A stretch of DNA of 64,000 bases from Chiloscyllium plagiosum (Eukaryota). The stretch is from contig NC_057752.1 in assembly GCF_004010195.1 (NCBI RefSeq), forward strand, positions 4,021,872 through 4,085,871. The letters run 5' to 3'. Positions 16,050 through 63,476 of this stretch are shown in pieces. The position numbers and the translations under genes are program-made. Position 1 is the stretch's first letter. Each line of letters opens with the position of its first letter. The notes beneath the pieces were generated by a model that saw only the letters and a list, made by a program, of their open reading frames with translations, was not told where the DNA came from and did no database searches.

Positions 16050-16271
16050 CAAAGGTAGACAAGCAGGAGGCTGGAAGAACACAGCAAGCCAGGCAGCATC
16101 AGGAGGTGGAGAAGTCAACGTTTCAGGCGTAACCGTTCTTCAGTCCTGAAGAAGGGTTACTTCCGAAACGTTGACTTCTTTACCTCCTGATGCTGTCTGA
16201 CTTGCTGTGTTCTTCCAGCCTCCTGCTTGTCTACCTTGGATTCCAGCATCTGCAGTTTTTTTTGTCTCTAA
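16050..16271. mobile_element. Palindromic PLE terminal-repeat pair in the BCDIN3D intron
   Basis: aaggtagacaagcaggaggctggaagaacacagcaag... is mirrored by ...cttgctgtgttcttccagcctcctgcttgtctacctt. Two opposed CTGAAGA...GAAACGTT cores. Near-perfect TSD ctgattta(a)gggcat at 16036 and 16272. Confidence 0.75.
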
Positions 16272-19320: not shown

Positions 19321-19543
19321 CCAATTTCCGTTAGTGTTAAATATTGTTTGATATCCCCTGTGAAGTGCCTGCAACATTTTATTATGTGAACGGTGCTTGT
19401 TTGTAATGTGAGACACCAAGAAGGTAACTAAAATTCAACTTGCTCATAAGTCATAAACTCAGTTTTAAATGTTGCCCTTTTGTGGACGTTCTTGCTTTAA
19501 GATCTATAAGTTTTTTCAAACTCTGTCCAAATGCCTTCCTCAG

Positions 19544-20125
19544 GATTTCAGCGTTGCCGTGTACAAACATCTTTATGATCTAACGGAAAACCGGATGTGG
19601 ATTTCCCCAGATAGACTGGACCTGAAGCTACTTGGTTGTGACATCGATCCTGACCTGATTCGAAGAGCCACTGAATCCAATTCCTTTCCTGAATCCATTT
19701 CGTATGCTACTCTGGATGTCATGGATTCTGCTTCCCGCGAGGCCGTATTAAAGTCTTACTTGGAGAAATTAGACCGTACTTCTTTTGATATTTGCTTTTG
19801 TATGTCCGTGACAATGTGGATCCATCTCAATCATGGTGACCAGGGGCTACTGGATTTCCTCCTGTATGTTTCAGGACTTTGCAAAGCTTTACTGATTGAA
19901 CCACAACCCTGGAAGTGCTACCGAGCTGCAGCCCGCAGGCTGCGCAAGCTGGGCAAAAGCAGATTTAACCACTTCAGTACACTCTCTATTAAAGGGGATA
20001 TGGCCCACAAGATTCAGCAGTTCCTGACAACTGACTGCAATATGGAACTAGTCAGGTGTTTTGGGAGCACCAATTGGGACAGGAGTTTACTGCTTTTTAA
20101 AAAACGTTCCTTGAGCCAAGAATGA
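19544..20125 (+). CDS. BCDIN3D: BCDIN3D exon 2 (193 aa + stop)
   Basis: The acceptor ccttcctcag|GAT is in phase 0, matching exon 1. It encodes DFSVAVYKHL...LLGCDIDPDLI...CMSVTMWIHLNHGDQGL...LLIEPQPWKCYRAAARRLRKLG...FGSTNWDRSLLLF, the Bin3 domain signature. Spliced product is 263 aa. Confidence 0.95.
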   Translation, partial: DFSVAVYKHLYDLTENRMWISPDRLDLKLLGCDIDPDLIRRATESNSFPESISYATLDVMDSASREAVLKSYLEKLDRTSFDICFCMSVTMWIHLNHGDQGLLDFLLYVSGLCKALLIEPQPWKCYRAAARRLRKLGKSRFNHFSTLSIKGDMAHKIQQFLTTDCNMELVRCFGSTNWDRSLLLFKKRSLSQE

Positions 20126-20182: not shown

Positions 20183-21422
20183 ATCTTTTATAAAACTACA
20201 CTAAACAGTCTGTTTTTAATGGTCTTGGCTGAATTTGTTATCGATGAAGCTAAGCATTGTCATTGGTATGTAAAGTACACAGATGTTGGAAATCTGAAAT
20301 GTAAACAAAGTCCTGGCATCAGTGGCGAAAGAAGCAGTTAATGTTTTGAGCCCATCAAGACTTCTTGGTTCAAAACAGTCATATTGGACTGAATGTTAAC
20401 TCTGTTTCTCTCTGCAGATGTTGCAAGAACTGTTGAATTTCTGCAAAACTTGATTTACTTCATTCTCACTGGTTCAAGTGTCACAATTTCCAGGTTAGTG
20501 AGAGTGTTATCCAGCCATACTGCAATGTTTTTCCTGCATTAACCCATAAAATTAACTTCTCTCAGCCCGACTCCTGGTCATTTTCACAATTTATCTTCCT
20601 TGCATCAGTGTTGTTCTTGTTTTGCTGACCAACCTGTGTGCGTGTGACACTGCAATGCAGATTGGAATTACAGAAACAGGGTGTTTGGCTCAACCAGTCC
20701 ATTTTATGTTAATGTGTGACCCATGTCACCTCTTCTTTCCCCATCCCTTATTCTCTTTTTAATTTAATTTGGTTGGGGCTCTGATCTCTTCAGTATATAG
20801 AGTAATTTTATCTTTTGGTATTTGTGCCTATTGTTTTCATTCTAGCTGTTAGTAATACTGGACAAATCAGATCCCAGATTGGAAACTGGTTTGATAGGTC
20901 ACATATTTAATTTTTTTTAGTTAGTTGGCATGGTGGGTAGTTACTGAAACATATTCACATGATGCTTGCAGATGTTCTTTAACATCAGAATATAAGTTAA
21001 TGACACAGAATAGAAAGTAAACCAAAAGATAAAGCAATTTCGAAAGATCTCAGTATAAAGTTTCAATCTGTTTTACAACATAATCCATTACAGAGACTTC
21101 AGTCCAGAAAAACTAAATTGTTATCTCGACTCTTTAAAGTATCTACTGTACTGACTCCTTCCAGTTTCTCTTCCATGGAATGCAGGAATAATTTTACGAT
21201 TGCTTTCTCAGTCTGCGGGCATAAACAGTTCACAATTCTGAGGCCTAAACATTTTCAGTTCTAACAACTTGAACTATCTATCTAAGCCCTCCTGGCTTAC
21301 AACGTCCACAGAATAGAAACCACTTCTGCTGAAGTGCTAGGATCTCCTAAACTGAACTGAACTGGAAGAAACTTGATTCCTCTGCTATTAGTAGGTAAAA
21401 ACAAAGCTACCTTTGTTCTGTT

Positions 21423-22940
21423 CCTCCTCATCTGCTCAGATGAGGAGGAACGTGATGGGCACCTGGAAGTACTCAGGGATGCCCTCACAAGAACAGGGTA
21501 CAATGCTCAACTCATCGACTGCCAGTTCCGACATGACACAGCAAGGAACCGTAATGACCACCTTAGGAGACAGACGCGCTGCAACCAACAGGGTACCCTT
21601 CGTTGTTCAGTACTTCCCAGGAGCTGAAAAACTACGCCATGTTCTTTGTGACCTGCAACACATTATCAATGAAGATAAGCACCTCGCCAAGACCTTCCCC
21701 ACACCTCCACTGCCTGCCTTTAAACAACTGCCAAACCTCAAACAGATCATTGTTCATAGCAAGCTGCCCAGCTCTCAGGACAACTCCATACAACCCTGTC
21801 ACGGTAGGCGCTGCAAGACGTGTCAGAGTGGAGACATGGATACCACCATTACACGTGGGGACACCTCCCACCTTGTACGTGGTGGTACTCATGTGACTCA
21901 GCCAACGTTGTCTATCTTATACGTTGCAGGCGAGGATGCTCTGAGGTATGGTACATTGGGGAAACCGAGCAAAGGCTACGACAACGGATGAATGAGCACC
22001 GCACAACAACCAACAGACAGGAGTGTTCCCCCTCAGTTGGGGAACACTTCAGTGGTCCAGGATATTTGACTTCGGACCTTCGGGTGACCATCCTCCAAGG
22101 TGGACTTTGGGACAGGCAGTAGCGAAAAGTGGCCGAGCAGAGGCTGATAGCTAAGTTCGGTACCCATAGGGAGGGCCTCAACCGGGACCTTGGGTTCATG
22201 TCACATTACAGGTGACCACACAGAAACTCCTACACACACACACTCACACATAGGCACTCCTATACACAGACACCCACACCGACACACACACTCCCACACT
22301 CTCACATGCACCCCCTCACAGACTTAAGATACTGTACACTCACTACACACACATATACACTCTTTCACACTCACAACCCCCAACCCAGACAGACAGACAC
22401 ACACACAGACAGACACAAAGACCCACATGCAAACATATATTTCGTGGGGTGAATTTGTACTTGCAGAGTTACATTGTACTTTGCTCAAAAACTGCATGAA
22501 TTTATGTACAACTCTGTAATCGCACTTTTTAGATTAGAATCAATCTAAACATCATGGCATAGACAGAGAACACAGGGGGCTAACACCTTCAACATATTGT
22601 CTAGCTAACATCAATTGTTACAACTAACCTGAGAATGCAACTTTTAAAAAAAGAGTTTTGTGATTTACACATGAAAGAAGTGAAACTATCATGGTATTCG
22701 AACAGATGAAAGACTCCACAGACAATCAAGGTATTTTTCAATGTGTAATTTCAGTTACATCACACTGTAAATTCTTGCTATAAATTCTGTGCCTTACAAT
22801 TGTGTCCTCCACTATCAACTGATGAAGGAGCGGCGCTCCGAAAGCTAGTGTGCTTCCAATTAAACCTGTTAGACTATAACCTGGTGTTGTATGATTTTTA
22901 AGTTTGTACACCCCAGTCCAACACCGGCATCTCCAAATCA
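21423..22940 (+). mobile_element. 5'-truncated Penelope-like element (RT C-terminus + GIY-YIG endonuclease, CA-rich 3' region, hammerhead at 22816-22850)
   Basis: Frameshifted ORFs ...RVPFVVQYFPG...PCHGRRCKTC...SANVVYLIRCRRGCSEVWYIGETEQRLRQRMNEHR (GIY-YIG). 11-bp TSD tttgttctgtt at 21412-21422 and 22941-22951. Confidence 0.9.
22232..22435 (+). repeat. Imperfect (CA)n-rich tract within the PLE
   Basis: Interrupted cacacaca/cagaca runs. Confidence 0.8.
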
Positions 22941-28420: not shown

Positions 28421-30516
28421 TTCACTGGCATTCAATGATGGCCTCTTTCAGGGCCAACTTTTCCTGATACTCAGTACACCATCAGGCATTCTGGTAATTT
28501 TCTATGTCTACTCAGAATCAGAGCAGCTTTTCTTGTACAGCATTATCCTTTCATTTCCAGTTCCGTAATCCCATTCCAATAATCTCCCTAAATCCCAAAT
28601 TTAGAGGAGTACTTTGTATTGTATCAGAGTGAAATTTTGGACAATCTACACAATGCCAGCCCTTAATCTAAATAATAATCAGTGACAAGCTTAAAATTTT
28701 ATATGCCAGTAATTGTTTAGGCACAAGTCAAGTATTTGATGTGGTTCAAACAGTGATTAAAAGTTCTAATATACATCTGTATCAGCAATCTTCATGATCC
28801 ATTTTAATTATATAGAGATGGGAAATATGAATTAAACCAGTTCAATATTTTCAACAAGAGATGCAAAATGATACTAACCATACACATCAGAAGGCTCTTG
28901 GTTCAATTCCTGCCTCATTCTTGATTCTGAAAGATGCAGACACAGTTCTTTTATTTTTCAAACAATTTCAAATCTTTCATTGGATAAAAATAAATTTGTT
29001 CCACCCTGTCCAAAGTCTGTGTGGTATGTACTGTCAGCTAAGTCTATAAAATTTTGGTGTTCCTTAAAGTGAATAAGATTTACATTGGAAACATTTTCAA
29101 TTTTCATTCTCATTCTTGGTATCGAGTTGTTGCAAAGGAAGTGTTGGATTAAAAGGAATGGCCCCATCATTTCTCACACACAAAAAAACTTTAGACTCAA
29201 TGTCACTTCCATCACCTCAACAGCGTTAGTCCTGTATCTTATTCTGATGTGCTCCTCGAATGAAAATCTCAATTTTGTCTGAGATGCAGGGATCAACTCC
29301 CTATCCCTTAAGAGCTGCAGTTCACAAAAAACTATTCTTTTTTTTAATTAGCAATTGATCTCGCATTAATTTTGTTTGCAGAAAAGAATTCCAAACTTTG
29401 AGTGTCCTTTGTATGTAGAAATATTTCTGAATTTTGCTCCTCGAAAATATGGTTCTTATTTTTAGATTTTGTCTGAGACTCCCAAACTAGCAGTGATAGT
29501 TTCTCTCTATCTACCCTATCAGTTCCTTTTAGTTCTTGAAGTCGCCAATCAGAACATCTTTTAAATTCCAGACAATACAACCCTTGTTTATATAATCTCT
29601 TACATCCCTGTGTAATGTTTAGAGTTCAATGGAAAGTAAATATTATCTCATAGAATGTATATTTCGATTTACTGGCAGTGTTCTGATGTACTCTATCTTT
29701 GAATAGGATTTAGCTTTTAGAACGATGATTTAACTCAAAGGCCTCTTTCACTCTGTAATGCTCTTTAAATTCCATTTAAAATGATACAAAATGTCAGAGC
29801 TGCCACCTTTGGACAAACCTCAGGTGTAAGATTCTCAATCCTCTTCACACTGAAAGCAGGAATTAGATTAAAATGCCAGACTATTCTTGATAGGGGCACA
29901 AGAGGTATCACGCCTTTGCTGTATTCTGAGTTCCCCTCTTGTCACTGCTGTTGTGGCAGCTATGGTAAAAGACCTGAGTCACACACCCTGGTTGTTTCTA
30001 TCGTATCGCTTGGAAAAGGTAATCAAGACATTAGCACTCACTTGGAGCAAGGCTTACTTTTTTTTTAAAAAACTGAAGAATTGCGGATGCTCTAAATTAG
30101 AAACACAAACAGAAATTGCTGGAAAAGCTCAGTAGGTCTGGCAGCATCTGTGGAGAGAAATCAAGAGTTACATTTCAGGTCTGGTGACCGGACCTAAAAC
30201 GTTAACTCTGATTTTTCTTCACAGATGCTGCCAGACCTGCTGAGCTTTTCCAGCAATCTCTGTTTTTATTTGCACACTTTTTTGTTCTGGTTTCAGAATA
30301 CAATGTATATTGAAGTATCTAACTCTTAACATGTATTGAAATCATTTTATCCCTTTGATCACCTGATTCACCCTCTGGCTCCATAATCTTGATGGCTAGG
30401 TGTAACAATATTTTGCCCTTAAGAGAGATTTGTTCTGTGCTGTTTCTCTTGCAGAAGTGTTGCCATAGGAGATGGAATGTCTGCTTCATAAGCAGTGGGC
30501 AAACAGCTTTAAGCAT

Positions 30517-31198: not shown

Positions 31199-32725
31199 CA
31201 GCTTTAAGCATCCTGAGTGTTTTTAAATGAGACAAAAGAAGCATGAGTGGGTGGGTTCATACAGACCCAGGGTTTTAGTTTTGCTTCAGTTGGGGTTTTG
31301 GAGTTGGCTGTTGAAGCTTATGGATACAGCTCTTTCCCTGCTGTAGCAAAATACTTGAGTTCTGTCTCTGCTGATAGGTTGTTTAGTTTGGTGTTGCTTC
31401 CTCCTGAACTGGAAGGGAGATAGCATATGAGGAAAATCTGTTGCTGAATTTGCCTTTGCCAAGGGTGTGTTTATTGGATGCTGCTATATTGAAACAGTTG
31501 GTGATTAGTAGTTAAATAACATTATTTTATTAACTATTTCAACAGAGTTAAAGTTATGCCAATTCTTCTTTTTGTTTGTACTTTAACTGTGTTGTAAGAA
31601 TAAGGTGTGTTTTGCTTAAAGCCTAGGGGTGAACCAATCAAATCATATCTGGAATACAGCACTTTACACTTGCCTATAAATAAAATAAAACATTAGGATC
31701 TAGGCCATCTCCTTGATATATTTTGAGAGGATTTGGTCTGATTAATAACAAACTGGGGGCCCATCTGTGATAAAAATCTCTAATTCTAGGTTGGGTTTAG
31801 GATTATTGGACTTGAAGACAGTGAGTGGTGAGTGTTGGTGCTCTCTTTTTGGTTGAATTTGGTTGGTTGAAACAATGTGTGCCTTGTGTAGTAATGGCTT
31901 TTTCAGTCACTAAGAGTTTCCTGGGAATGGAAGAATTCATTTGGGGCAAAGCTTTCGGAATTGGCAGACAAGCTGAAGTTGAGGTTGCCTATGTCAATGA
32001 CAAAAGAGGAGGTAATTGTAGCAATAGCTCAGCATCTACAATCGCCAGGATACAATTAGAATCATTGGAAATGGCTAAAATTCAACTGCAAATGGAGCAG
32101 CTTGCATTAGAGGCAAAAGAAAAGGAAAGAATAGTCCTAGCAGAATAAAGGGATAAAGAGAGAACTTTTAACTTCAGAAGTTAGAAGTGAAAAGTGAAAA
32201 TCGACTTAAAATGGCAGAAGTAAAAGTAGAAGGTGGGAGTGGTGATGAGGACAGTGATGAAGAGCAAACGCATCACAGCCAAAGGCCTAGTGGAGATCTG
32301 TTTAAATATGTCAAAGCATTGCCAAGGTTCGACAAGAAGGATGTAGAAACCTTTTTTTATTTTGTTTGAGAAAGTGGCTAGACAAATTAAATTGCCATTG
32401 GCCATGTAGATATTGAAACAAAGTTGACAGGTAGAGCTAATGAGGTGTTTGTGTCACTATCAGAGGAGGTATCCAGGGAATATGATGGAGCGAAAAATGC
32501 CATCTTAAATATCTATGAACTAGTGCCAGAAACCTACAGACAACATTTCAGGAATCTAAGGAGGGAACCTGATCAAACATACAAAGAATTTGAAAAGATC
32601 AAACAAAGTAACTTTGATAGCTGGATAAGCACATTGAAAATAGATCAGACGTATGACGGTTGTGGAGAGACTTATTTTGGAGGAGTTCAAAAATTCACTT
32701 CCTGAAATAGTGAGAACTCATGTAG

Positions 32726-33074
32726 CATGATGGCTCAGTGGTTAGCACTGCTGCCTCTCAGCGTCAGGGATCCAGTTTTGATTCTACCTTTGGGCGACTG
32801 TGTGGAGTTTACATGTTCTCCCTGTGTCTGCGTGGATTTCCTCTGGGTGCTCCGGTTTCCTCCCACAGTCACAAAGATGTGCAGGTTGGGTGGATTGGCC
32901 ATGCCAAATTGCCTATAAAGTCCAAGGATGTGTAGGTTAGTTGGGTTAGCTATGGGAAACGTGGGGTTACAGTGAGGTGGGGGGGGGGTGTGAGTCTGGG
33001 TGGGATGCTGTTTGGAGCATTGGTGTGGACTTGTTGGGCCGAATGTCCTGCTTTCATACTGTAAGAATTCTATG
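32726..33074 (+). mobile_element. HE1-like SINE inserted in Gmr1-like gag (further copies at ~33866-33950 and ~34304-34612)
   Basis: tggctcagtggttagcactgctgcctc head and conserved core. It interrupts the gag reading VRTHV|EEQ. Confidence 0.85.
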
Positions 33075-35056
33075 AGAAGAGCAGAGAGTTCAAACTGCAA
33101 GATTAGCAGTAGAAATGGCAGATGATTTTGAGTTAGTTCATAAATCAAAGTTTGGCTACTAGCACCAATTTCCATCTGTGAGGGATAGAAATTAGGGAAA
33201 AGCGAAATCCTCAGGTAGTAAAATAAAAGGAGATCTCATTCAAGATAGTAAAGATAGTTTACCACAAATTTTTAAAAAATCAATGGGGGAGGGGAAGAGA
33301 AGTAAAAAAACTTTAGGTGTTTTCACTATAATAATGTAGGCCACACAAAGTCGCAATGTTGGTGGTTTAGAAAAAGCATGGGAAGATGCATGTCAGAAAA
33401 CAGGATAAGCAGTGAGTTTTGTTCAAGTGGTAAAGGAAAGCACAGTGGAAGCTAAAAAGCTGCAAAAGAATGTACAGCCTGGTCAGGAGTTGGTTGAGAA
33501 GAAAGTGCCAGTTCTCTTTAAATAATTTATTTGGTGAGTGATGAGGAGATATATATTTCGGAACGAGTATTGCTAGAAAAGATGAGAATATGTTGAATTG
33601 AAAGTGAGAAGAGCAGTGTTCCATTATATAAAGTGAGGTTGGCGAGTCTGATGAAAAGTGATGTAATAGTAGTAGGAGTAACAAAAAAATTTACCGTTCT
33701 GGAGATAGAATTTATCCTTGGGAATGACATAGCTGGATCACAGGTGGGAGTGATGCTTATTGTGGTGGAAAAGCCAGTGGAAAATCAGACAACTGAGGTA
33801 TCACAAGAAGTATACCCTGGGACTTTTTCCTGACTTTGTGGTAACAAGGTCACAAAGTGGCCTTGGGGTGGCACAGTGGCTCAGTGGTTAGCACTGCTGC
33901 CTCACAGCACCAGGGACCCAGGTTCAATTCCAGCCTCAGGTGACTGTCTATCCCTACATTCTATATCTTCAGTCAAGAGTATCCAGAGGATTGGAACAAA
34001 GGGATTCCATTTGTACTTTTTGCAATTAGGGATGAAACAACTAAATTTAGTACATTTGACTGAGTTTTTGGGCATGAGGAGAGAAGACCACTTAAATTAA
34101 TTGTAGAAAAATTGGTGAGTAGAGTTCACAGAGTCCATATTTGGACTATGTGTCAATGTTAAGGAGAGATTAAATAGAGCGGGTGAGTTGGCTCAGACAG
34201 CATTTAAAAGTAGCACAGCATATTATGAAACGGGAAGCAGATAGATCAAAAATTTGTACAGGTCATTCTGCTCTAATGCGACAGTTGCATTACCCTGTGT
34301 GGGGGGTGGCACAGTGGCTTGGTGGTTAGCACTGCTGCCTCACAGTGCCAGAGACCCAGGTTCAATTCCAGCTTTGGGCGACTGTCTGTGTGGAGTTTGC
34401 ACATTCTCCCTGTGTCTGTGTTGATTTCCTCTGGGTGCTCTCGTTTCCTCCCACAGTCCAAAGATGTGTCAGGTGAATTGGCCATTCTAAATTGCCCAAA
34501 GTGTTTGGTGCATTAGTTAGAGGGAAATGGGTCTGGGTGGGTTACTCTTTGGAGGGTCGGTGTGGATTTGTTAGGCCAAAGGGCCTGTTTCCACACTAGG
34601 GAATCTAATCTACCCAATTTTGCAGTGCACATACACGATCTGCTGATTTTTTAGCCACACACGGAAGGAACATTTGAAGAACAAGTGCAATTGTTCAATC
34701 GACTTCAGGAGGTGGGCTTGATCATAAACCTGGCTAAGAGTGAGTGTGCAAAAGTCCAAGTCATATTCCTAGGCCATATCATTGGATATTGACAGATGGT
34801 CCCATGGGATGTGAAAATAAAGGTTATTAAGGAATTTCCTGTACTGTCAACGAAGAGAGAAGTCGTACAATTCCAGGGACTGAATGGTTTTTATCAAAAA
34901 TGCATACTGACTTTTAACAAGGCAGTTACTCCACTGACTGACCTGTTGAAACAATGCAGAAAATTTCAGTGAATGGAACAGTGTCAGAAAGCATTTGACA
35001 GACTGAAAACTGTGTTGACCACTGCTCCAGTGTTAACAATTATTTATGCAAGGTTG

Positions 35057-36067
35057 GAGAAAGTGAGGTCTGCAGATGCTGGAGATCAAAGTTGAAACTT
35101 TATTGCTGGAACAGCACAGCAGGTCAGGCAGCATCTAGGGAACAGAAGATTCGACGTTTCGGGCACATGCCCTTCTTCAGGAATGAGCAGAGAGTGTTCA
35201 GCAGGAGAAGATAAAAGGTAGGGAGGAGGGACTTGGAGGAGGGGCGTTGGAAATGTGATAGGTGGAAAGAGGTCAGGGTGAGGGTGATAGGTCGGAGTAG
35301 GATGGGGGCGGAGAGGTCAAGAAGAAGACTGCAGGTCAGGAAGGCGGTGCCGGGCTTCCTGACCTGCAGTCTTCTTCTTGTCCTCTCCGCCTCCACCCTA
35401 CTCCGACCTATCACCCTCACCTTGACCTCTTTCCACCTATCACATTTCCAACTCCCCTCCTCCAAGTCCCTCCTCCCTACCTTTTATCTTCTCCTGCTGA
35501 ACACTCTCTGCTCATTCCTGAAGAAGGGCCTGTGCCCGAAACGTCGAATCTCCTGTTCCCTGGATGCTGCCTGACCTGCTGTGCTGTTCCAGCAATAAAG
35601 TTTCAACTTTGATCTCCAGCATCTGCAGATCTCACTTTCTCCTCGAAGATTTCAACCTACTGCGAATCCTCTTACAAGGATGCCTTCCTTGAAGAAGCTC
35701 TCTGCCTCTCTCTACAAAGATCTAACACTCTCTGCTCATTCCTGAAGAAGGGCCTGTGCCCGAAACGTCGAATCTCCTGTTCCCTGGATGCTGCCTGACC
35801 TGCTGTGCTGTTCCAGCAATAAAGTTTCAACTTTGATCTCCAGCATCTGCAGATCTCACTTTCTCCTCGAAGATTTCAACCTACTGCGAATCCTCTTACA
35901 AGGATGCCTTCCTTGAAGAAGCTCTCTGCCTCTCTCTACAAAGATTTCAGTGAGTCCCTAACACTCTCTGCTCATTCCTGAAGAAGGGCCTGTGCCCGAA
36001 ACGTCGAATCTCCTGTTCCCTGGATGCTGCCTGACCTGCTGTGCTGTTCCAGCAATAAAGTTTCAAC
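35057..36067. mobile_element. PLE-derived fold-back plus tandem terminal repeats, inserted in the Gypsy RNase H region
   Basis: ~290-bp inverted arms (35057-35343 vs ~35356-35641, giving mirror-image 113-aa ORFs) followed by tandem units. TSD tttatgcaaggttg at 35043-35056 and 36068-36081. Confidence 0.9.
35514..35549 (+). ncRNA. Minimal type I hammerhead ribozyme motif (identical copies 35738-35773 and 35974-36009; antisense copy 35149-35184)
   Basis: ATTC (stem I)-CTGAAGA-A-GGGC-CTGT-GCCC (stem II)-GAA-ACGT (palindromic stem III)-C|GAAT (stem I). Predicted cleavage after GUC at 35545. Confidence 0.7.
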
Positions 36068-38124
36068 TTTATGCAAGGTTGTTCAAGGTGGCTATTGCTA
36101 CAAGTATTTGGTGGTCGATGCTGTTCCTTGCAAGAAAACAACAACAGTATTGAGAGACCTATTGGATATTTTTACAGAAAGTTGAATATTCATCAAAAGA
36201 AATGTTTCACCATTGAGAAAGAGACCTTGAGTTTGGTGGTGGCGTTGCAACATTTCAACATTTATGTTGCCAGTAATGTATCTGAGGCAATTTCTCAGAT
36301 CATAACCCCTAAACATATCTGGATAAATTTAAGGATAAAAATACATGACAGTTAAGAAGGACTGTTATAGTCATTCAATTTGAAAATTACAGATGTGGCA
36401 GTAGGAGAGAACATAATTGGCGACACATTGTCACAACTTTAATGAAGGAAGACAGAAGTGTTCGGTGGCAGAAGAAATGGACTGAGATTGACTATAGTAT
36501 TAAATGTTTGCATGCTTAGGTTTAGTGTAATGTAAATACGTAATGTAGAGTACTTATAGTGTGAGACTAAGTCTTTGAAAATAAAGCCATCTTTGTATAT
36601 TGATGTTTCTTTTTTTAAGAGGGAAGGTGTGATGTGTCTTTAAAAGTGATTTGTTCTGTGTTGTTTCTCTAGCAGAGAGGTGTTGGCCCAGTGGTGCTGG
36701 AATGTCTGCAGTGGGTAAACAGCTTTAAGCTCCTTAAGAGTTTTTTAAAAATTAGACAAAAGAAGCATGTCTGGGTGGAGTCAGGCTCAAACAGACCCAG
36801 GATTTTAGCTTTGCATTTAGTTGGAGTTTGGAGTTGGCTGTTGAAGTTGATAGATACAAAGCTTGCACTCTGCTGCAACAAAAAGCTTGAGTTCTCTCTC
36901 TGCCTCAAGGTTATTTCTTATGGTGTTCCTTTCACCTGGATTGGAAGGGGGATAGCATGTAAGGAAAATCTGTTTTGCTGAATTTGCCTTTTCCAAAGGT
37001 GTGTTTATGGGATCCTGCATTGGAACAGTTGAAGATTAGTAGTTAAAGGATATATTATTTTATTAAGTAGTTAGTTATGCCAATTCTTCTTTTTTGTTTG
37101 GATTTTAACTGTGGTGTAAACATAAAGTGTGTTTTGCTTAAAGCCAAGTGATGAATGAATCAAATCATATCTAGAATACAGTGCCTTATACTTGCCTATA
37201 AATAAAATAAAAAGTTAGGGTCTAGGTATCTCCTTGATATATTCTGAGGGGGTTTGGTCTGATCATAACACATAAGGTAAAGATGGGTACTGGCTGTGTT
37301 ACAATCTGACCCAGGCATTGTTTCCAAAGTTAGTGCAGTTCCAGATAGATATCCCCAAATCATTAAGCTCCCACTGAGCAGGAACTGGCTCTCCTTCTTT
37401 ACTCACCTGTCCCCTCAGTTGGTTGTAACCAGGTTAACTTAAAAGAGGATTTCTCCCCTGGTGATGCCTTTCTCCCATATCAAATGAATTTATTATTTAA
37501 AAGGAGCCAAGGCTTCCTTGAATTAACCAAAGAATGAATTTATAGCTACAAAGGTGAAGGTAAAGTCATCATACTCCCAGAGAACCATCGAGTTGTTCTC
37601 TCATTAGAGATACAGATGACTGGCAGTGGTTTAACCTGAGGTTGAAAAGGAGGGACCTTCATGGTAACCTCAGTCAATGTGGGAATTGAACCCACACTTG
37701 TTGACATTACTCTGCATTGCAAATCAGTTGCCCACCTATCCCAATGCCTCACTAGTTAATAAATGTGAGATGACATAATAACACAACACAAACACACAAG
37801 CTAGGAATAAGACATGAGTCCAAAAAAATGATGAAATGAATATGGATCAGTTTCTCCAGGTCTTTTGTGAAAGGTAGATCATTGAAAAGTCAATTTTGGG
37901 TTCTTGGCTTTGCGGGTTAGTTGAAATCCTTTTGTTCTGTTTCCTTTGGACAGCAGTTGCTTAGCAGCAATCAAAGTGAGAGAGTTCTTCTTGTCCTTTT
38001 TCCATCAACTGGCTTGCTGGCTAGTTGGCTTCTAGCACTGAGTAACGAAGTTCTTTTACTTGCAACACTGGTCGTTCTTTGACTGTGACTTTTACAGCAT
38101 ACTAGCACTCAAAGCCAGGCTAGT

Positions 38125-43290: not shown

Positions 43291-44886
43291 GAATGTCCAC
43301 TTTTAGGATAGGGAATCTGCCCTTACCCAATTTGGCTGAAATGTGACTTAAAATCTATACCAATATGTTGATTCTTAACTGCCCTCTGAAGTGGCCACTC
43401 AGTTATAGACAACTCATGACGACTTGCTCAAGGGCAGTTCAGAGTGGGCAATTATTGCTGGCTTTGTCATGGCACGCATATCCCAGAAACAAATTAGTAA
43501 AAAGAAAAGCTTGCTACAGAGTTAAGCAAAGGCTCGTAAACCAGAAGTGTTAACTCTGTTTCTCTCCTCACATATGCTGCCAAACCTGCTGGGTATTTCC
43601 AGCATCTGTAGTGTTTTGCTTTTACACAGAACAGGAGGAAAGGCCACCTAGCCCTTCAAGCCTGTACCACCATTTATTTAGATCAAAACTGATCTGTAAA
43701 CGGTTGATTCCATTTACCTACCTTGGTACCATATAGCTTTACCTAACAAAAATCTCTCGGTCCAGATATTGAATTTTTTAATTAATCCCCAGTTTTTGAG
43801 GGGAGAGCTCCAGATTTCCACTGTTTGTATGGACGAAATGCTTCTAGACATCACTGCTGTTTAGACTAGCTCTATTTTTCCCACCTGAGGAAAGCCTTTG
43901 TCTCTATCGACCTTTTAAAATTGATGAATTATCTCAAGCACCTTAATTAATTCATCCCTCAATCGCTTAATCTTCTATAACTATATGAGAGAGGGCGTAG
44001 AGGCAATTTACAAGGATTTAGCCAGGCCGAAAATTGCAGCAATAAGGAAAGGTTGGGCTTTCTGTCCTGAGAACAAAGAAGCCAAGGGGAGATTTAATTG
44101 AGATGTACAAAATTGGGAGGAGCCTGGATAGAATGGCTGGGAAGGGCCTATTTACCTTGCAGACTCTTCAGTGATTGGTAGAAGGATGAGAGGGATAATG
44201 AGGAAACATTTTACAACCAGAATATGTTGGAACACACTGCATGAAAGGGTAGAGGAAGGAGAATCCCAGAACTCATTTAAAAGGTATCTGGATATGCATC
44301 TGAAGTCCTGTAACCTCCAGGGATATGGATAAAGTGCTGGAAAATGGAAATAGGTTGACTGGACTATTTTTCAGCTGGGACAGATATGATGGGCAGAGTG
44401 GCCTCCTGTGTTATAAATGTTTCTACACTTTCTAAATAACTGAAAGGGTTTGGGGAGAGCTGATTGTACAGGGATGTAAGGAGTGGGTGGACGAGGGACA
44501 GTATGTGAATTGCTCCATAGGAGGCTCCATGGAAGTGATGGATTATAAATGGTCATTATTTAGTACCATAAATATTCTATGATTCTAATTTATGCATCCA
44601 TTTGTCATAACTTAACCTCTTTAGCTTGGTTATTTTTCAGGTGAATTTGCACTACAGCCCCTCCAAGACGAATATACTTCCTGAGGTACAGTGCAAACAG
44701 CAGAATGTTATAACCCATGCACAGTCTAACTAAAGCATAAACAACTATACCACCCTATGGAATTAAGGCTAACATCCCACTAGCCTGTTAAATTATTGTT
44801 GTACAACCGGATCTGAAAATTGAATTCAGCATCTGTCTTGAGATTGCTTGCAGAAAATTGAGTTTCATTAGATGCTGCATCAACTG

Positions 44887-45510
44887 TTCTGCCACCGACA
44901 AACGGACCCCACCACTAGAGATATATTTTCCTCCCCACCCCTATCTGCTTTCCGTAAAGACCATTCTCTCCGCAACTCTATTCCACATCCATCAAAGTTT
45001 CACCTGCACTTCCACACATGTCAATTACACTATCCAGTGCTCCCGATGCAGTCTCCTCTACACTGGGGAGATAGTTTGTCTACTAGCAGAGCGCTTCAGA
45101 GCACATCTCTGGGATACCCGCACCGACCAACCCACCGCCCTGTGGCCGAACACTTCACTCCCCTTCCCACTCTGCCGAAGACATGCAGGTCCTGGGCCTC
45201 CTCCACTGCCACTCCCTCACCACCCGACGCCGGAGGAAGAATGCCTTATCTTCTGCCTCGGGACCCTCCAACCCCAGGGCATCAATGTGGATTTCACCAG
45301 TTTCCACATTTCCCCTCCCCCCACCTTACCCCAGTTTCAACCTTCCAGCTCAGCACCGTCCTCATGACCTGTCCTACCTGTCAATCTTCCTTTCCACCTA
45401 TCCACTCCACCCTCCCCTCTGACCTATCACCTTTACCCCCACCTCCATCCATCTACTGCACTCTCAGCTACCTTCCCCCCAGCCCCAAACCCTCCTATTT
45501 ATCTCTCCGT
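44887..45510 (+). mobile_element. Penelope-like element GIY-YIG fragment
   Basis: QSFTCTSTHVNYTIQCSRCSLLYTGE...LAERFRAHL...LGTLQPQGINVDF; same family as 61415-63476. Confidence 0.85.
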
Positions 45511-45926
45511 CCCTGAGGTTCCTGTTTTGGTACCTCTCTACCTGGTAAATTATGAGGGACAGTCCAGGGCATGGATGGGTTTTCTGCCACCCTACATTGT
45601 GATGTGCTCACTTCATCACTGAGTATCTGCCTGGCAACAATGGAGGAGGGTGAAGAGGAAGAGTATGCGTAACATCCAGCCCACATAATCTGGTCGTTCC
45701 TTGATTGTTGTGTGTGGGACCTTGCCGTGTGCAAATTGTTTGGTGCATTTCCTACAGAGCTGGTGCAGACCCAATGGGCTGAAAAGCCTCATTCCTCACT
45801 GGAACAATTCTGTGATCGAGAAAGTATTGGCAGCAAAACGTGCTGAGGGATTTGGAGTTTGCGAAAGGTGTTATCAAAATGCAAATTCTTTCTGTCCTTC
45901 CATCTACATCCAGTTCAGTATCTCAC

Positions 45927-46875: not shown

Positions 46876-47180
46876 TTTCAAATAAACCTGATGGACTATA
46901 ACCTGGTGTCGTGTGACCTCTGATTTTATCCATCCCAGTCCAACACCGGCACCTCCACATACCCAACACTTCAAGCACACTTGCCCTCTATATCTGCAGA
47001 TTGTGCACTGGACTCATCAGGCATCTTAGAAGAAATTGCCTCAGAAGAGAAGAAGGAAGGAGAAAATTAACACAGTTCTTAATTGCATTACTGTGGTCCT
47101 GATCAAAACTTCTTTATGTGTTAAGAAAAAAAGATTAAATAGTCTGTGCAGCTGAAAGCTTGGGATAGATGCTATCTAGA

Positions 47181-47389
47181 ATCAAGAGTGTTGTGCTGGA
47201 AAAGCACAGCAGATCAGGCAGCATCCAAGGAGCAACAGAATTGACGTTTTGGGCATAAGCCCTTCATCAGGAATGAGGGTTATACCCAAAACGTCGTTTC
47301 TCCTGCTCCTTGGATGCTGCCTGACCTGCTGTGCTTTTCCAGCACCACATTCTCAACTGATCCCAGCATCTGCAGTCCTCACTTTCTCC
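47181..47389. mobile_element. Palindromic PLE terminal-repeat pair
   Basis: Opposed gctggaaaagcacagcag/ctgctgtgcttttccagc arms; 16-bp TSD atagatg(c/t)tatctaga at 47165-47180 and 47390-47405. Confidence 0.8.
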
Positions 47390-47543
47390 ATAGATGTTAT
47401 CTAGACCTTGCCCTGCTAGTGACCTTAGTTTAAAAGACGAATGCATGACACTGTAGCTAATCATTCAGACCAGTTTAAAGTGCTGTATTTGCTGTTAAAA
47501 TTGAAATGTATGCAATGGGTTTAAGGTGAGTAAGAGGGAAATA

Positions 47544-61414: not shown

Positions 61415-63476
61415 GAACTCCCCACATATGTTTGGGACACCACCCACGCCCTCCACCTCCTCCAAGACTTCCGTTTCCCCCGGCCCCCAATGCCTCATCT
61501 TCACCATGGACATTCAGTCCCTCTACACCTCCATTCACCATGACCAGGGCCTCTAAGCCTTCCATTTCTTCCTCTCCTGACATGCTCACCAGTACTCTTC
61601 CACTGACATTCTCATTCGTTTGGCTGAGCTGGTCCTCACCCTCAACAATTTCTCCTTCGAATCCTCCCACTTCCTCCAGACAAAAGGGGTAGCCATGGGC
61701 ACCCGCATGGGCCCCAGCTATGCCTGTCTCTTTGTCAGCTATGTAGAACAGTCCATCTTCCGTAGTTACACCGGCACCACTCCCCACCTTTTCCTCCGCT
61801 CCATTGACGACTGCAATGGCACCACCTCGTGCTCCCGCGAGGAGGTTGAGCAGTTCATCAATTTCGCCAACACATTCTACCCTGACCTTAAATTCACATG
61901 GACCATCTCTGACACCTCCCTCCCCTTCCTGGACCTCTCCATCTCCATCAATGACGACCGACTTGANNNNNNNNNNNNNNNNNNNNNNNNNNNNNNNNNN
62001 NNNNNNNNNNNNNNNNNNNNNNNNNNNNNNNNNNNNNNNNNNNNNNNNNNNNNNNNNNNNNNNNNNNNNNNNNNNNNNNNNNNNNNNNNNNNNNNNNNNN
62101 NNNNNNNNNNNNNNNNNNNNNNNNNNNNNNNNNNNNNNNNNNNNNNNNNNNNNNNNNNNNNNNNNNNNNNNNNNNNNNNNNNNNNNNNNNNNNNNNNNNN
62201 NNNNNNNNNNNNNNNNNNNNNNNNNNNNNNNNNNNNNNNNNNNNNNNNNNNNNNNNNNNNNNNNNNNNNNNNNNNNNNNNNNNNNNNNNNNNNNNNNNNN
62301 NNNNNNNNNNNNNNNNNNNNNNNNNNNNNNNNNNNNNNNNNNNNNNNNNNNNNNNNNNNNNNNNNNNNNNNNNNNNNNNNNNNNNNNNNNNNNNNNNNNN
62401 NNNNNNNNNNNNNNNNNNNNNNNNNNNNNNNNNNNNNNNNNNNNNNNNGGACCAGTTCCACCACAGAACACACCAGATGGCCTCCATCTTGAAAGACTGT
62501 AATTTCCTCTCCTACGTGGTTGATGATGCCCTCCAACACATCTCATCCACGTCCCGCACCTCCACCCTCAAACCCCACCCCTCCAACTGCAACAAGGACA
62601 GAACCTCCCGGTCCTCACCTTCCATCCCACCAACCTCCGTATAAACTGCATCATCTGCCGACATTTCTGCCACCTACAAACGGATCCCACCACCAGGGAT
62701 ATATTTTCCTTCCCACCCCTTTCCACTTTCTGCAAAGACCATTCCCTCCATAACTACCTGGTCAGGTTCATGCCTCCCAACAACCCACCCTCCCTTCCTA
62801 GCACCTTCCCCTGCCACCACAGGAAATGCAAAACCTGCGCCCACACCTCCCCCCTCACCTCCATCCAAGGCCCCAAAGGAGCCTTCCACATGGATCAAAG
62901 TTTCACCAGCATTTCTATAAATGTCATTTATTGCATCCATTGCTCCCGATGCGGTCTCCTTTACATTGGGGAGACTGGATGCCTTCTCGCAGAGCGCTTC
63001 AGGGAACATCTCCAGGACACCTGCATCAATCAACCCCACCGCCCCATGGCCAAACATTTCAACTCCCACTCCCACTCCCACTCTACCAAGGACATGCAGA
63101 TCCTGGGCCTCCTCCACCGCCACTCCCTCACCACCCAACGCCTGGAGGAAGAACGCTTCATCTTCCACCTTGGAACCCTTCAACCCCAGGGTGGACTTCA
63201 CCAGTTTCCCCAGTTCCAAACTTCCAGCTCAGCACCATCCTCATGACCTGTCCCACCTGTCAATCTTCCTTCTCACCCATTCGGTCCACCCTCCTCTCCG
63301 ACGTATCACCTTTACCCCTTCCTCCATCCACCAATGCACTCTCAACTACCTTCTCCCCACCCAAGGCTTCCAGCCTCATTCCTGATGAAGGGCTTATGCC
63401 CGAAACTTTGATTTTCCTGCTCCTCGGATGCTGCCTGACCTGCTGTGCTTTTCCAGCACCACTCTAATCTTGACTT
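61415..63476 (+). mobile_element. Penelope-like element (RT + GIY-YIG), 5'-truncated, spanning an assembly gap, inserted in a tRNA-derived SINE
   Basis: LVLTLNNFSF...QTKGVAMGTRMGPSYACLF...FLRSIDD...LPFLDL (PLE RT); CKTC...NVIYCIHCSRCGLLYIGETGCLLAERFREH (GIY-YIG). 12-bp TSD caattaatccag at 61403-61414 and 63477-63488. Hammerhead-like core from 63382. Confidence 0.9.
61967..62448. other. Assembly gap (482 N)
   Basis: Run of N. Confidence 1.

Follow-up and report, generated by a model that had tools for sequence, protein, structure and literature searches.

Insertions of Penelope-like elements (PLEs) have been described as combining a partial tandem, an inverted 5'-truncated copy and a tail of 30-40 nt at one end (PMC8557442). 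A related account gives a 31-bp tail, duplications of 9-10 bp and a pLTR that holds the first 12-22 codons (PMC3846280). In work on Poseidon-Ac (PAc) from Anolis carolinensis, the tail was traced to two reverse-transcription start sites, with both strands of AT-rich DNA being cut and extended, and the PAc hammerhead was reported to cleave only together with its protein, cleavage being dispensable for insertion (PMC11167929). Cleavage by minimal PLE hammerheads is weak, also in dimeric and trimeric form (PMC4209133); dimer cleavage is credited to Lunse et al., as cited in PMC6765202. The circles of animal retrozymes are described as self-paired and furnished with canonical hammerheads (PMC7229834). 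Additionally, a 2026 preprint (10.64898/2026.07.22.740005) reports that 20 of its 31 vertebrates carry tandem hammerhead arrays, its single chondrichthyan among them (mean unit 363 bp), derives them from pLTRs and finds cleavage in one of the nine that it tested.

We analysed a 64-kb stretch of DNA from the shark Chiloscyllium plagiosum (64,000 nt, hereafter the window), in which an insertion of about 1.0 kb carries three sense hammerhead motifs and a fourth in an inverted arm. Our analysis makes it probable that this locus is a short, non-coding insertion of PLE ends, likely produced by one recent reverse-transcription event at an AT-rich nick, in which a mini-unit was copied twice, and which is probably inert. 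A literature search outside subscription journals and Repbase found no paper on the insertions of this shark PLE family.

Layout and target site of the insertion

In the assembled sequence, a target duplication of 10-14 nt stands at both flanks of the insertion. By exact string match, its left copy occupies 35043..35056 and its right copy 36068..36081, and the 14-nt string occurs exactly twice in the 64-kb window, which bears out an earlier reading of the letters alone (the sequence-only reading) that had described a single insertion bounded by a target-site duplication. The length is given as a range because 3 nt on the right side and 1 nt on the left can be assigned to either element or target. 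The site is AT-rich, and the duplication length fits the variable-length type of EN+ PLEs.

The host sequence is the decayed pol of an LTR retrotransposon (34655..36355, plus strand; RT end and RNase H-like, by profile matches), which the insertion splits. Positions 3-24 of the RT_RNaseH_2 profile match on the left of the insertion and positions 45-95 on the right, with positions 172-205 of RVT_1 matching further left. The decayed LTR retrotransposon as a whole spans 31800-36450 and includes, near 32400, a gag-like piece that matches SCAN weakly, then RT and RNase H at about 34650-36350, and two related SINE-like copies at 33865 and 34303. Elsewhere in the window, a 218-codon frame at 19469-20125 (+), with the insertion lying about 15 kb downstream of it, carries a Bin3 methyltransferase domain (E 5.8e-22). 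We take this frame to be probably the main exon of BCDIN3D.

The left part of the insertion (35056..35354, minus strand) is an inverted, 5'-truncated copy of a PLE end, comprising 3'UTR, hammerhead, pLTR end and tail together with an 11-nt centre (35344-35354). The inverted arms, at 35056-35343 and 35355-35642, are 288 nt each and 97% identical, with nine substitutions, and the complete fold-back measures 587 nt including the centre. The 11-nt centre appears to extend the 3'UTR of the left arm, and the truncation points of the two arms lie at most 11 nt apart. A tandem behind a fold-back of about 590 bp had been proposed earlier; the fold-back is real, but the first sense hammerhead (A) lies inside its right arm rather than behind it. 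A 32-nt tail is present on the left end (35056-35087), and the right end is without a tail. The insertion contains both a partial tandem and an inverted 5'-truncated copy at the 5' end.

The right arm starts with pyrimidine-rich PLE 3'UTR (35355..35499, plus strand), and three direct units follow, beginning at 35500, 35724 and 35960 with spacings of 224 and 236 nt. Unit A (35500..35723, +; 224 nt) is composed of the element's last 111 nt, 111 nt of body start and 2 nt at the joint, and equals unit B minus 12 nt. Unit B (35724..35959, +; 236 nt) joins the element's last 111 nt to the body's first 125 nt, and unit C (35960..36070, +; 111 nt) is a pLTR end without the tail. A tandem repeat was called here with a period of 224 and 2.5 copies. 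Units A and B show no difference over 222 nt and units A and C none over 111 nt; the joint letters of A and B are identical, and a single 12-nt indel lies between them. Differences between the arms, at 9 of 288 sites, compare with 0 of 333 between the direct units (p=0.0009). The earlier view of a young insertion with no coding capacity is supported.

Source element, family alleles and the repeat count

By homology, the insertion is made of end pieces of an abundant shark PLE, probably of the Neptune type. Positions 35362-35594 align to 63255-63458, directly after a GIY-YIG ORF with RT upstream, and the 3'UTR part of the right arm aligns to 63255-63458 and to 45372-45508, in both cases after GIY-YIG ORFs. 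The shark PLE origin proposed from the letters is supported, since an RT + GIY-YIG PLE in the window has a homologous 3' end. That PLE copy, at about 61420-63476, is 5'-truncated. It retains parts of RT and GIY-YIG, its hammerhead is altered at the end of the core, a 12-nt duplication flanks it, and it is interrupted by a gap of 482 N; its best protein matches are in Chiloscyllium punctatum (73% and 89%). It is a diverged subfamily and not the parent of the insertion. The CX2-5CxxC linker motif, given for Neptune and Nematis in PMC8557442, is present in the related PLE copy at 62527-63246, and the insertion itself carries no such sequence. Inverted head-to-head pairs of PLE ends from different subfamilies also occur in the window, at 16055-16270, 30100-30272 and 47180-47392; the 16-kb and 47-kb pairs have 8-nt exact flanking duplications, and the tail of the 47-kb pair is one-sided. 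Decayed PLE endonuclease regions lie at 44880-45520 and 21395-22230, the latter from a different family and followed by a CA-rich tract.

To describe the family, the stretch 35835-36500 was aligned at 90% likeness with three contig runs and one RNA run. The family is very abundant, with 27,014, 22,568 and 3,412 contigs aligned in the three runs and 1,401 reads in the RNA run. Upstream of the unit start, the natural 3'UTR is found in 12, 11 and 10 contigs and in 63 reads (agreement 0.96-1.0), and the last 30 nt of 35355..35499 are this natural upstream sequence in all four runs. Past 35959, eight contigs (run X3) run on into further body sequence (agreement 0.95). Because contigs continue naturally on both sides of the joint, the unit is the element's last 111 nt joined to the body's first 111 or 125 nt. 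Furthermore, the contigs and reads of the family break off at 35866-35868, 32 nt beyond the pLTR end, with unrelated continuations (agreement 0.33-0.56, all four runs), and 39 contigs (run X1) stop at 36070 (agreement 0.56). The left end of the insertion corresponds to the family end point at 35866-35868 and its right end to that at 36070.

Joints of a similar kind occur elsewhere in the family. Eleven of the 15 joints listed (63 in all) lead from the body at 35868-35939 to the pLTR at 35971-36048, each at its own place, although their short sides (20-27 nt) at 90% likeness carry a risk of repeat artefacts and 10 of the 11 have unknown letters between the two parts. Varied joints of this sort suggest that mini-tandems are a routine product of the PLE family, and the aligned contigs favour joints that are specific to a locus. 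They also bear on the idea of an established multi-copy retrozyme family with a fixed 236-nt monomer. The array is a tandem with at least two complete motifs below -5 kcal/mol, which is the computational retrozyme definition of the 2026 preprint apart from the preprint's own descriptors, and such arrays are reported in its one chondrichthyan genome. However, contigs that run out of the joint on either side pass into ordinary PLE sequence, the other joints are located at other positions, and three other motif matches in the window lie outside such units. Moreover, summed depth over the spacer end at 35927-35949 is 17- to 63-fold below that of four pLTR bins (run X1), a measure that is not copy number. 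We therefore regard an established family as highly improbable.

The family alignment also informs the history of the two arms. Four arm differences fall within the aligned stretch, and all are family alleles, at about 10%, 7%, 9% and 94% (run X1). Since these differences already exist as family alleles, they point to a second template RNA and suggest that the left and right arms were copied from two different RNAs. Two templates do not in themselves account for both arms ending within 11 nt of each other. Divergence of the arms after insertion was also considered and is less likely, the four testable differences being family alleles, though at variable sites.

Coding capacity was examined at the protein level. 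The sequence-only reading had reported no RT or endonuclease coding sequence, and this was confirmed, with no match in the insertion for 52 PLE proteins by tblastn or for six frames against 169 PLE proteins by blastp. Three frames of 103-119 codons in the arms had no Pfam match, and the intact RT + GIY-YIG ORF that marks an autonomous PLE is absent. Nevertheless, the units still hold what is likely the start of the PLE ORF, with its first 14 codons in unit A (35680..35721, +) and its first 18 in unit B (35904..35957, +), according to N-terminus scoring and contig continuation. Scored against the N-termini of 12 long PLE proteins, the ones left out of 169 after filtering by length and motif, the 18-residue start ranked above 995 of the window's 998 Met-started peptides, and the frame from the ATG at 35904 stays open for 10 further codons in the continuing X3 contigs (read by eye). 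We grade this assignment only as likely because direct database searches with the peptide gave nothing credible: the 46-residue frame with the likely ORF start had no match among 10 candidates, and its single phmmer match (E 1e-3) was to a repetitive protein and was dismissed as chance.

As assembled, the array has three units. In our assessment it is unlikely that the count is an assembly error, with a dimer as the true locus and units A and B as two alleles distinguished by the 12-nt indel, or as a duplicate introduced in tandem by gap filling. Identity is 100% between the direct units but not between the arms, as such an error would predict, and the 482-N gap inside another PLE copy indicates that PLE repeats trouble the assembly of this window; complex PLE insertions are described as troubling short-read assemblies in general (PMC8557442). 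Among the contigs listed, none bridges a unit joint or a flank joint (53,675 further pieces are unlisted), so that an assembly error and a circular template each retain a low probability. On the other hand, the target duplication is intact and both ends of the insertion fall at family end points. The alignment of one 295-nt contig (run X3) begins at 36068 exactly, where the duplication has its first base. This agrees with a real insertion point, the filled and the empty allele being indistinguishable in this contig. The fold-back, for its part, is not a copied read, since its arms differ at nine sites.

Hammerhead motifs and the retrozyme question

Hammerhead cores are located at 35518, 35742 and 35978 on the plus strand and at 35180-35154 on the minus strand. 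The hammerhead pattern gave seven matches in the window (four exact and three with one mismatch) and none in 100 shuffles, and the four exact matches are the four motifs of the insertion. Hammerhead A (35514..35549, +) is a minimal type I motif, by pattern and predicted fold, with its C17 at 35545; the hammerheads of unit B (35738-35773, +) and unit C (35974-36009, +) have theirs at 35769 and 36005. The minimal hammerhead of the inverted arm (35149..35184, -) has one change in loop II. Correctly read from the letters alone were the three identical sense motifs with these predicted C17 positions, the antisense motif in a near-perfect inverted arm (97% identical to its partner) and the assignment to minimal type I hammerheads with palindromic stem III. 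The core CUGAnGA / GAAA / UH, helices I and II and the palindromic 15.2-16.2 are present. The same reading had advised a search with hammerhead covariance models, and in Rfam no hammerhead match was obtained at E<=1 or at E<=10. Pattern scans of metagenome and viral contigs gave 0 matches. A miRNA gene in the hairpin was considered and rejected, because the Rfam miRNA matches were all below the gathering score and such matches reflect any long duplex.

The adenosines of the GAAA core vary in transcripts. At 35999-36001, family-wide reads of run X21 show A>G in 27 of 296, 51 of 299 and 52 of 307 reads in one direction and in 1 of 241, 5 of 239 and 5 of 243 in the other, with 0.04-0.4% in DNA contigs. 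The pattern resembles A-to-I editing, which would inactivate the hammerhead core; a strand bias also appears in seven of nine control variants, the RNA comes from another sample, and the reads are not assignable to this locus. Heavy editing of Penelope has been described in a lizard (PMC5625713).

Predicted folding gives little reason to expect an active array. For a single motif, the predicted fold has helices I and II and an energy of -7.1 kcal/mol, which does not surpass that of shuffles, and the probability of helix II formation in context is predicted at 0.67-0.93 outside the hairpin. A nested double hammerhead would lie 11.7-14.7 kcal/mol above the ensemble, in a model without tertiary contacts and protein, and hammerhead A is predicted to be fully paired when the whole insertion is folded. 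Compared with shuffles, linear monomers of 224 and 236 nt are not more stable (z -0.28 and 0.17), and circular monomers give z values of -0.29 and 0.11 with 52-59% of bases paired. In a read-through RNA, the arms would pair into a 288-bp duplex and hammerhead A would be hidden in the fold-back; hammerheads B and C could form at most one weak dimer, possibly protein-assisted. These models indicate that the insertion is probably inert as a ribozyme. The expectation that intramolecular dimers would release monomers of 224 and 236 nt runs against them, since the dimer is predicted to be about 12 kcal/mol less favourable than the ensemble and hammerhead A to be paired.

Nor was the broader claim upheld that the array behaves as a retrozyme, given that the units are a PLE end plus a body start and that the monomers fold no better than shuffles. 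The canonical type I hammerhead of Cervera 2020, defined by its usual helix sizes and by contacts between loops 1 and 2, is not found here, helix I being 4 bp, the helix III loop absent and Rfam silent, and neither is the stable self-paired monomer of the same work, the z values being near 0. In the RNA run, no read falls on the unique right flank at 36088-36225 and no end pile-up appears among the reads listed, which is a weak test, as this run is one poly(A) single-cell library of which 2% was read, and such a library would miss circles.

A retrozyme at the moment of its birth is a separate proposition. Here, the PLE protein would have gone round a 236-nt circle from a partial-tandem source more than twice before switching to a full PLE RNA for the 3'UTR, with a second RNA priming the other strand. 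Units A and B share one joint and the units are identical, and two laps of one unit are the expected trace of a circular template. The length of 236 nt lies within the 150-450-bp range of animal retrozymes (PMC7229834), circular templates have been proposed for PLE tandems in the discussion of PMC4209133, and the number of template switches is no higher than in our best explanation. Nevertheless, two cleavages and a ligation would be needed from minimal hammerheads that cleave weakly (PMC4209133), cleavage in PAc depends on the protein and is not needed for insertion (PMC11167929), and eight of nine Xenopus candidates showed no cleavage (preprint 10.64898/2026.07.22.740005). As stated, circular monomers gain no stability over shuffles (z 0.11 and -0.29), and the 3'UTR upstream of unit A cannot derive from a circle. 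On balance, we find a nascent retrozyme unlikely. If it were true, hammerheads B and C would free a 236-nt circle from the transcript, and a natural substrate would be at hand for asking whether PLE tandems come from circles. Should circles or efficient cleavage occur, they would tie PLE insertion directly to the origin of retrozymes. Unit ends set by ribozyme cleavage were also considered and rejected, as the units start 46 nt upstream of the cut site.

Proposed origin and comparison with known systems

Our preferred reading is a single reverse-transcription event on PLE RNA. A PLE protein acting in trans would cut both strands 10-14 nt apart, as the duplication implies. On the right side, copying would start at the pLTR end (36070), run for 111 nt and then reach a joint at which nearly all of the element is passed over; copying would resume 125 nt into the body start, as the sequence on both sides of the joint shows. 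This joint may be a template jump, made at this locus or inherited from the source copy. At this stage the template carries the same 111 nt at either end, which makes a slip possible: the growing DNA strand may have moved back once and recopied the spacer, losing 12 nt. Alternatively, the unit may have been duplicated in DNA soon afterwards, which would be indistinguishable from a slip. Copying would go on for 145 nt into the 3'UTR and then stop. For the left arm, synthesis would begin at a second start site, which lies 32 nt beyond the pLTR end and so yields the tail; its template was likely a different RNA of this family, and the product would then be joined head-to-head to the right copy.

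Units A and B agree in their joint letters and are told apart by a single 12-nt indel, so the simplest history is one origin of the joint followed by two rounds of copying. A history of two separate jumps onto one acceptor was rejected as more complicated, given that the letters at both joints agree. The second copy of the mini-unit most likely came from a polymerase slip or a later duplication, as far as the sequence can tell; a slip on linear RNA, a later DNA duplication and laps on a circle all leave the same sequence. Template jumping, which the sequence-only reading had offered as its alternative, gains support from the PLE layout and from the family joints at other positions.

The closest counterparts are the insertions of EN+ PLEs of the Neptune and Nematis groups, as described in PMC8557442 and PMC3846280. 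They share with this locus the 5' truncation, the partial tandem, the inverted head-to-head 5' copy, a tail of about 30 nt at one end, a variable duplication of 9-14 nt, the ORF start beside the pLTR and a hammerhead in the pLTR. In contrast to those insertions, nearly the whole ORF is absent here and the deleted mini-unit is present twice, so that three sense hammerheads lie 224 and 236 nt apart, where the described insertions have two about 3 kb apart. PAc, as presented in PMC11167929, resembles this locus in its two start sites separated by the tail, its AT-rich target, the ATT adjoining the duplication and the cutting and extension of both strands. However, the CX2-5CxxC motif carried by the related shark PLE of the window is a mark of Neptune and Nematis and not of Poseidon, and the ORF start lies downstream of the hammerhead here, whereas it lies in stem II in PAc.

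The motifs themselves agree with the minimal PLE hammerheads described in PMC4209133 in the 4-bp helix I, the extra base between positions 9 and 10.1, the G10.1-C11.1 pair, the palindromic 15.2-16.2 and the lack of loop 3. Helix II is 4 bp here, compared with 6-8 bp in the schistosome and fly motifs. With the metazoan non-LTR retrozymes of PMC7229834 and the preprint, the insertion has in common non-coding tandem units of 224-236 nt, a type I hammerhead, a GC content of 48%, a duplication longer than 4 nt and derivation from a pLTR. It differs from them in that the hammerhead is minimal and not canonical, the monomer is not stably self-paired, and an inverted arm, a tail and PLE 3'UTR are present.

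In summary, the locus is a further truncated copy of a very common shark retroelement. Its layout is already described for the PLE class, and pLTR-derived tandem hammerhead arrays are known from the 2026 preprint, including in a cartilaginous fish. Its value lies in being a clean and young record of PLE insertion, which preserves one joint copied twice, two start sites at two ends and arms that seemingly derive from two RNAs.
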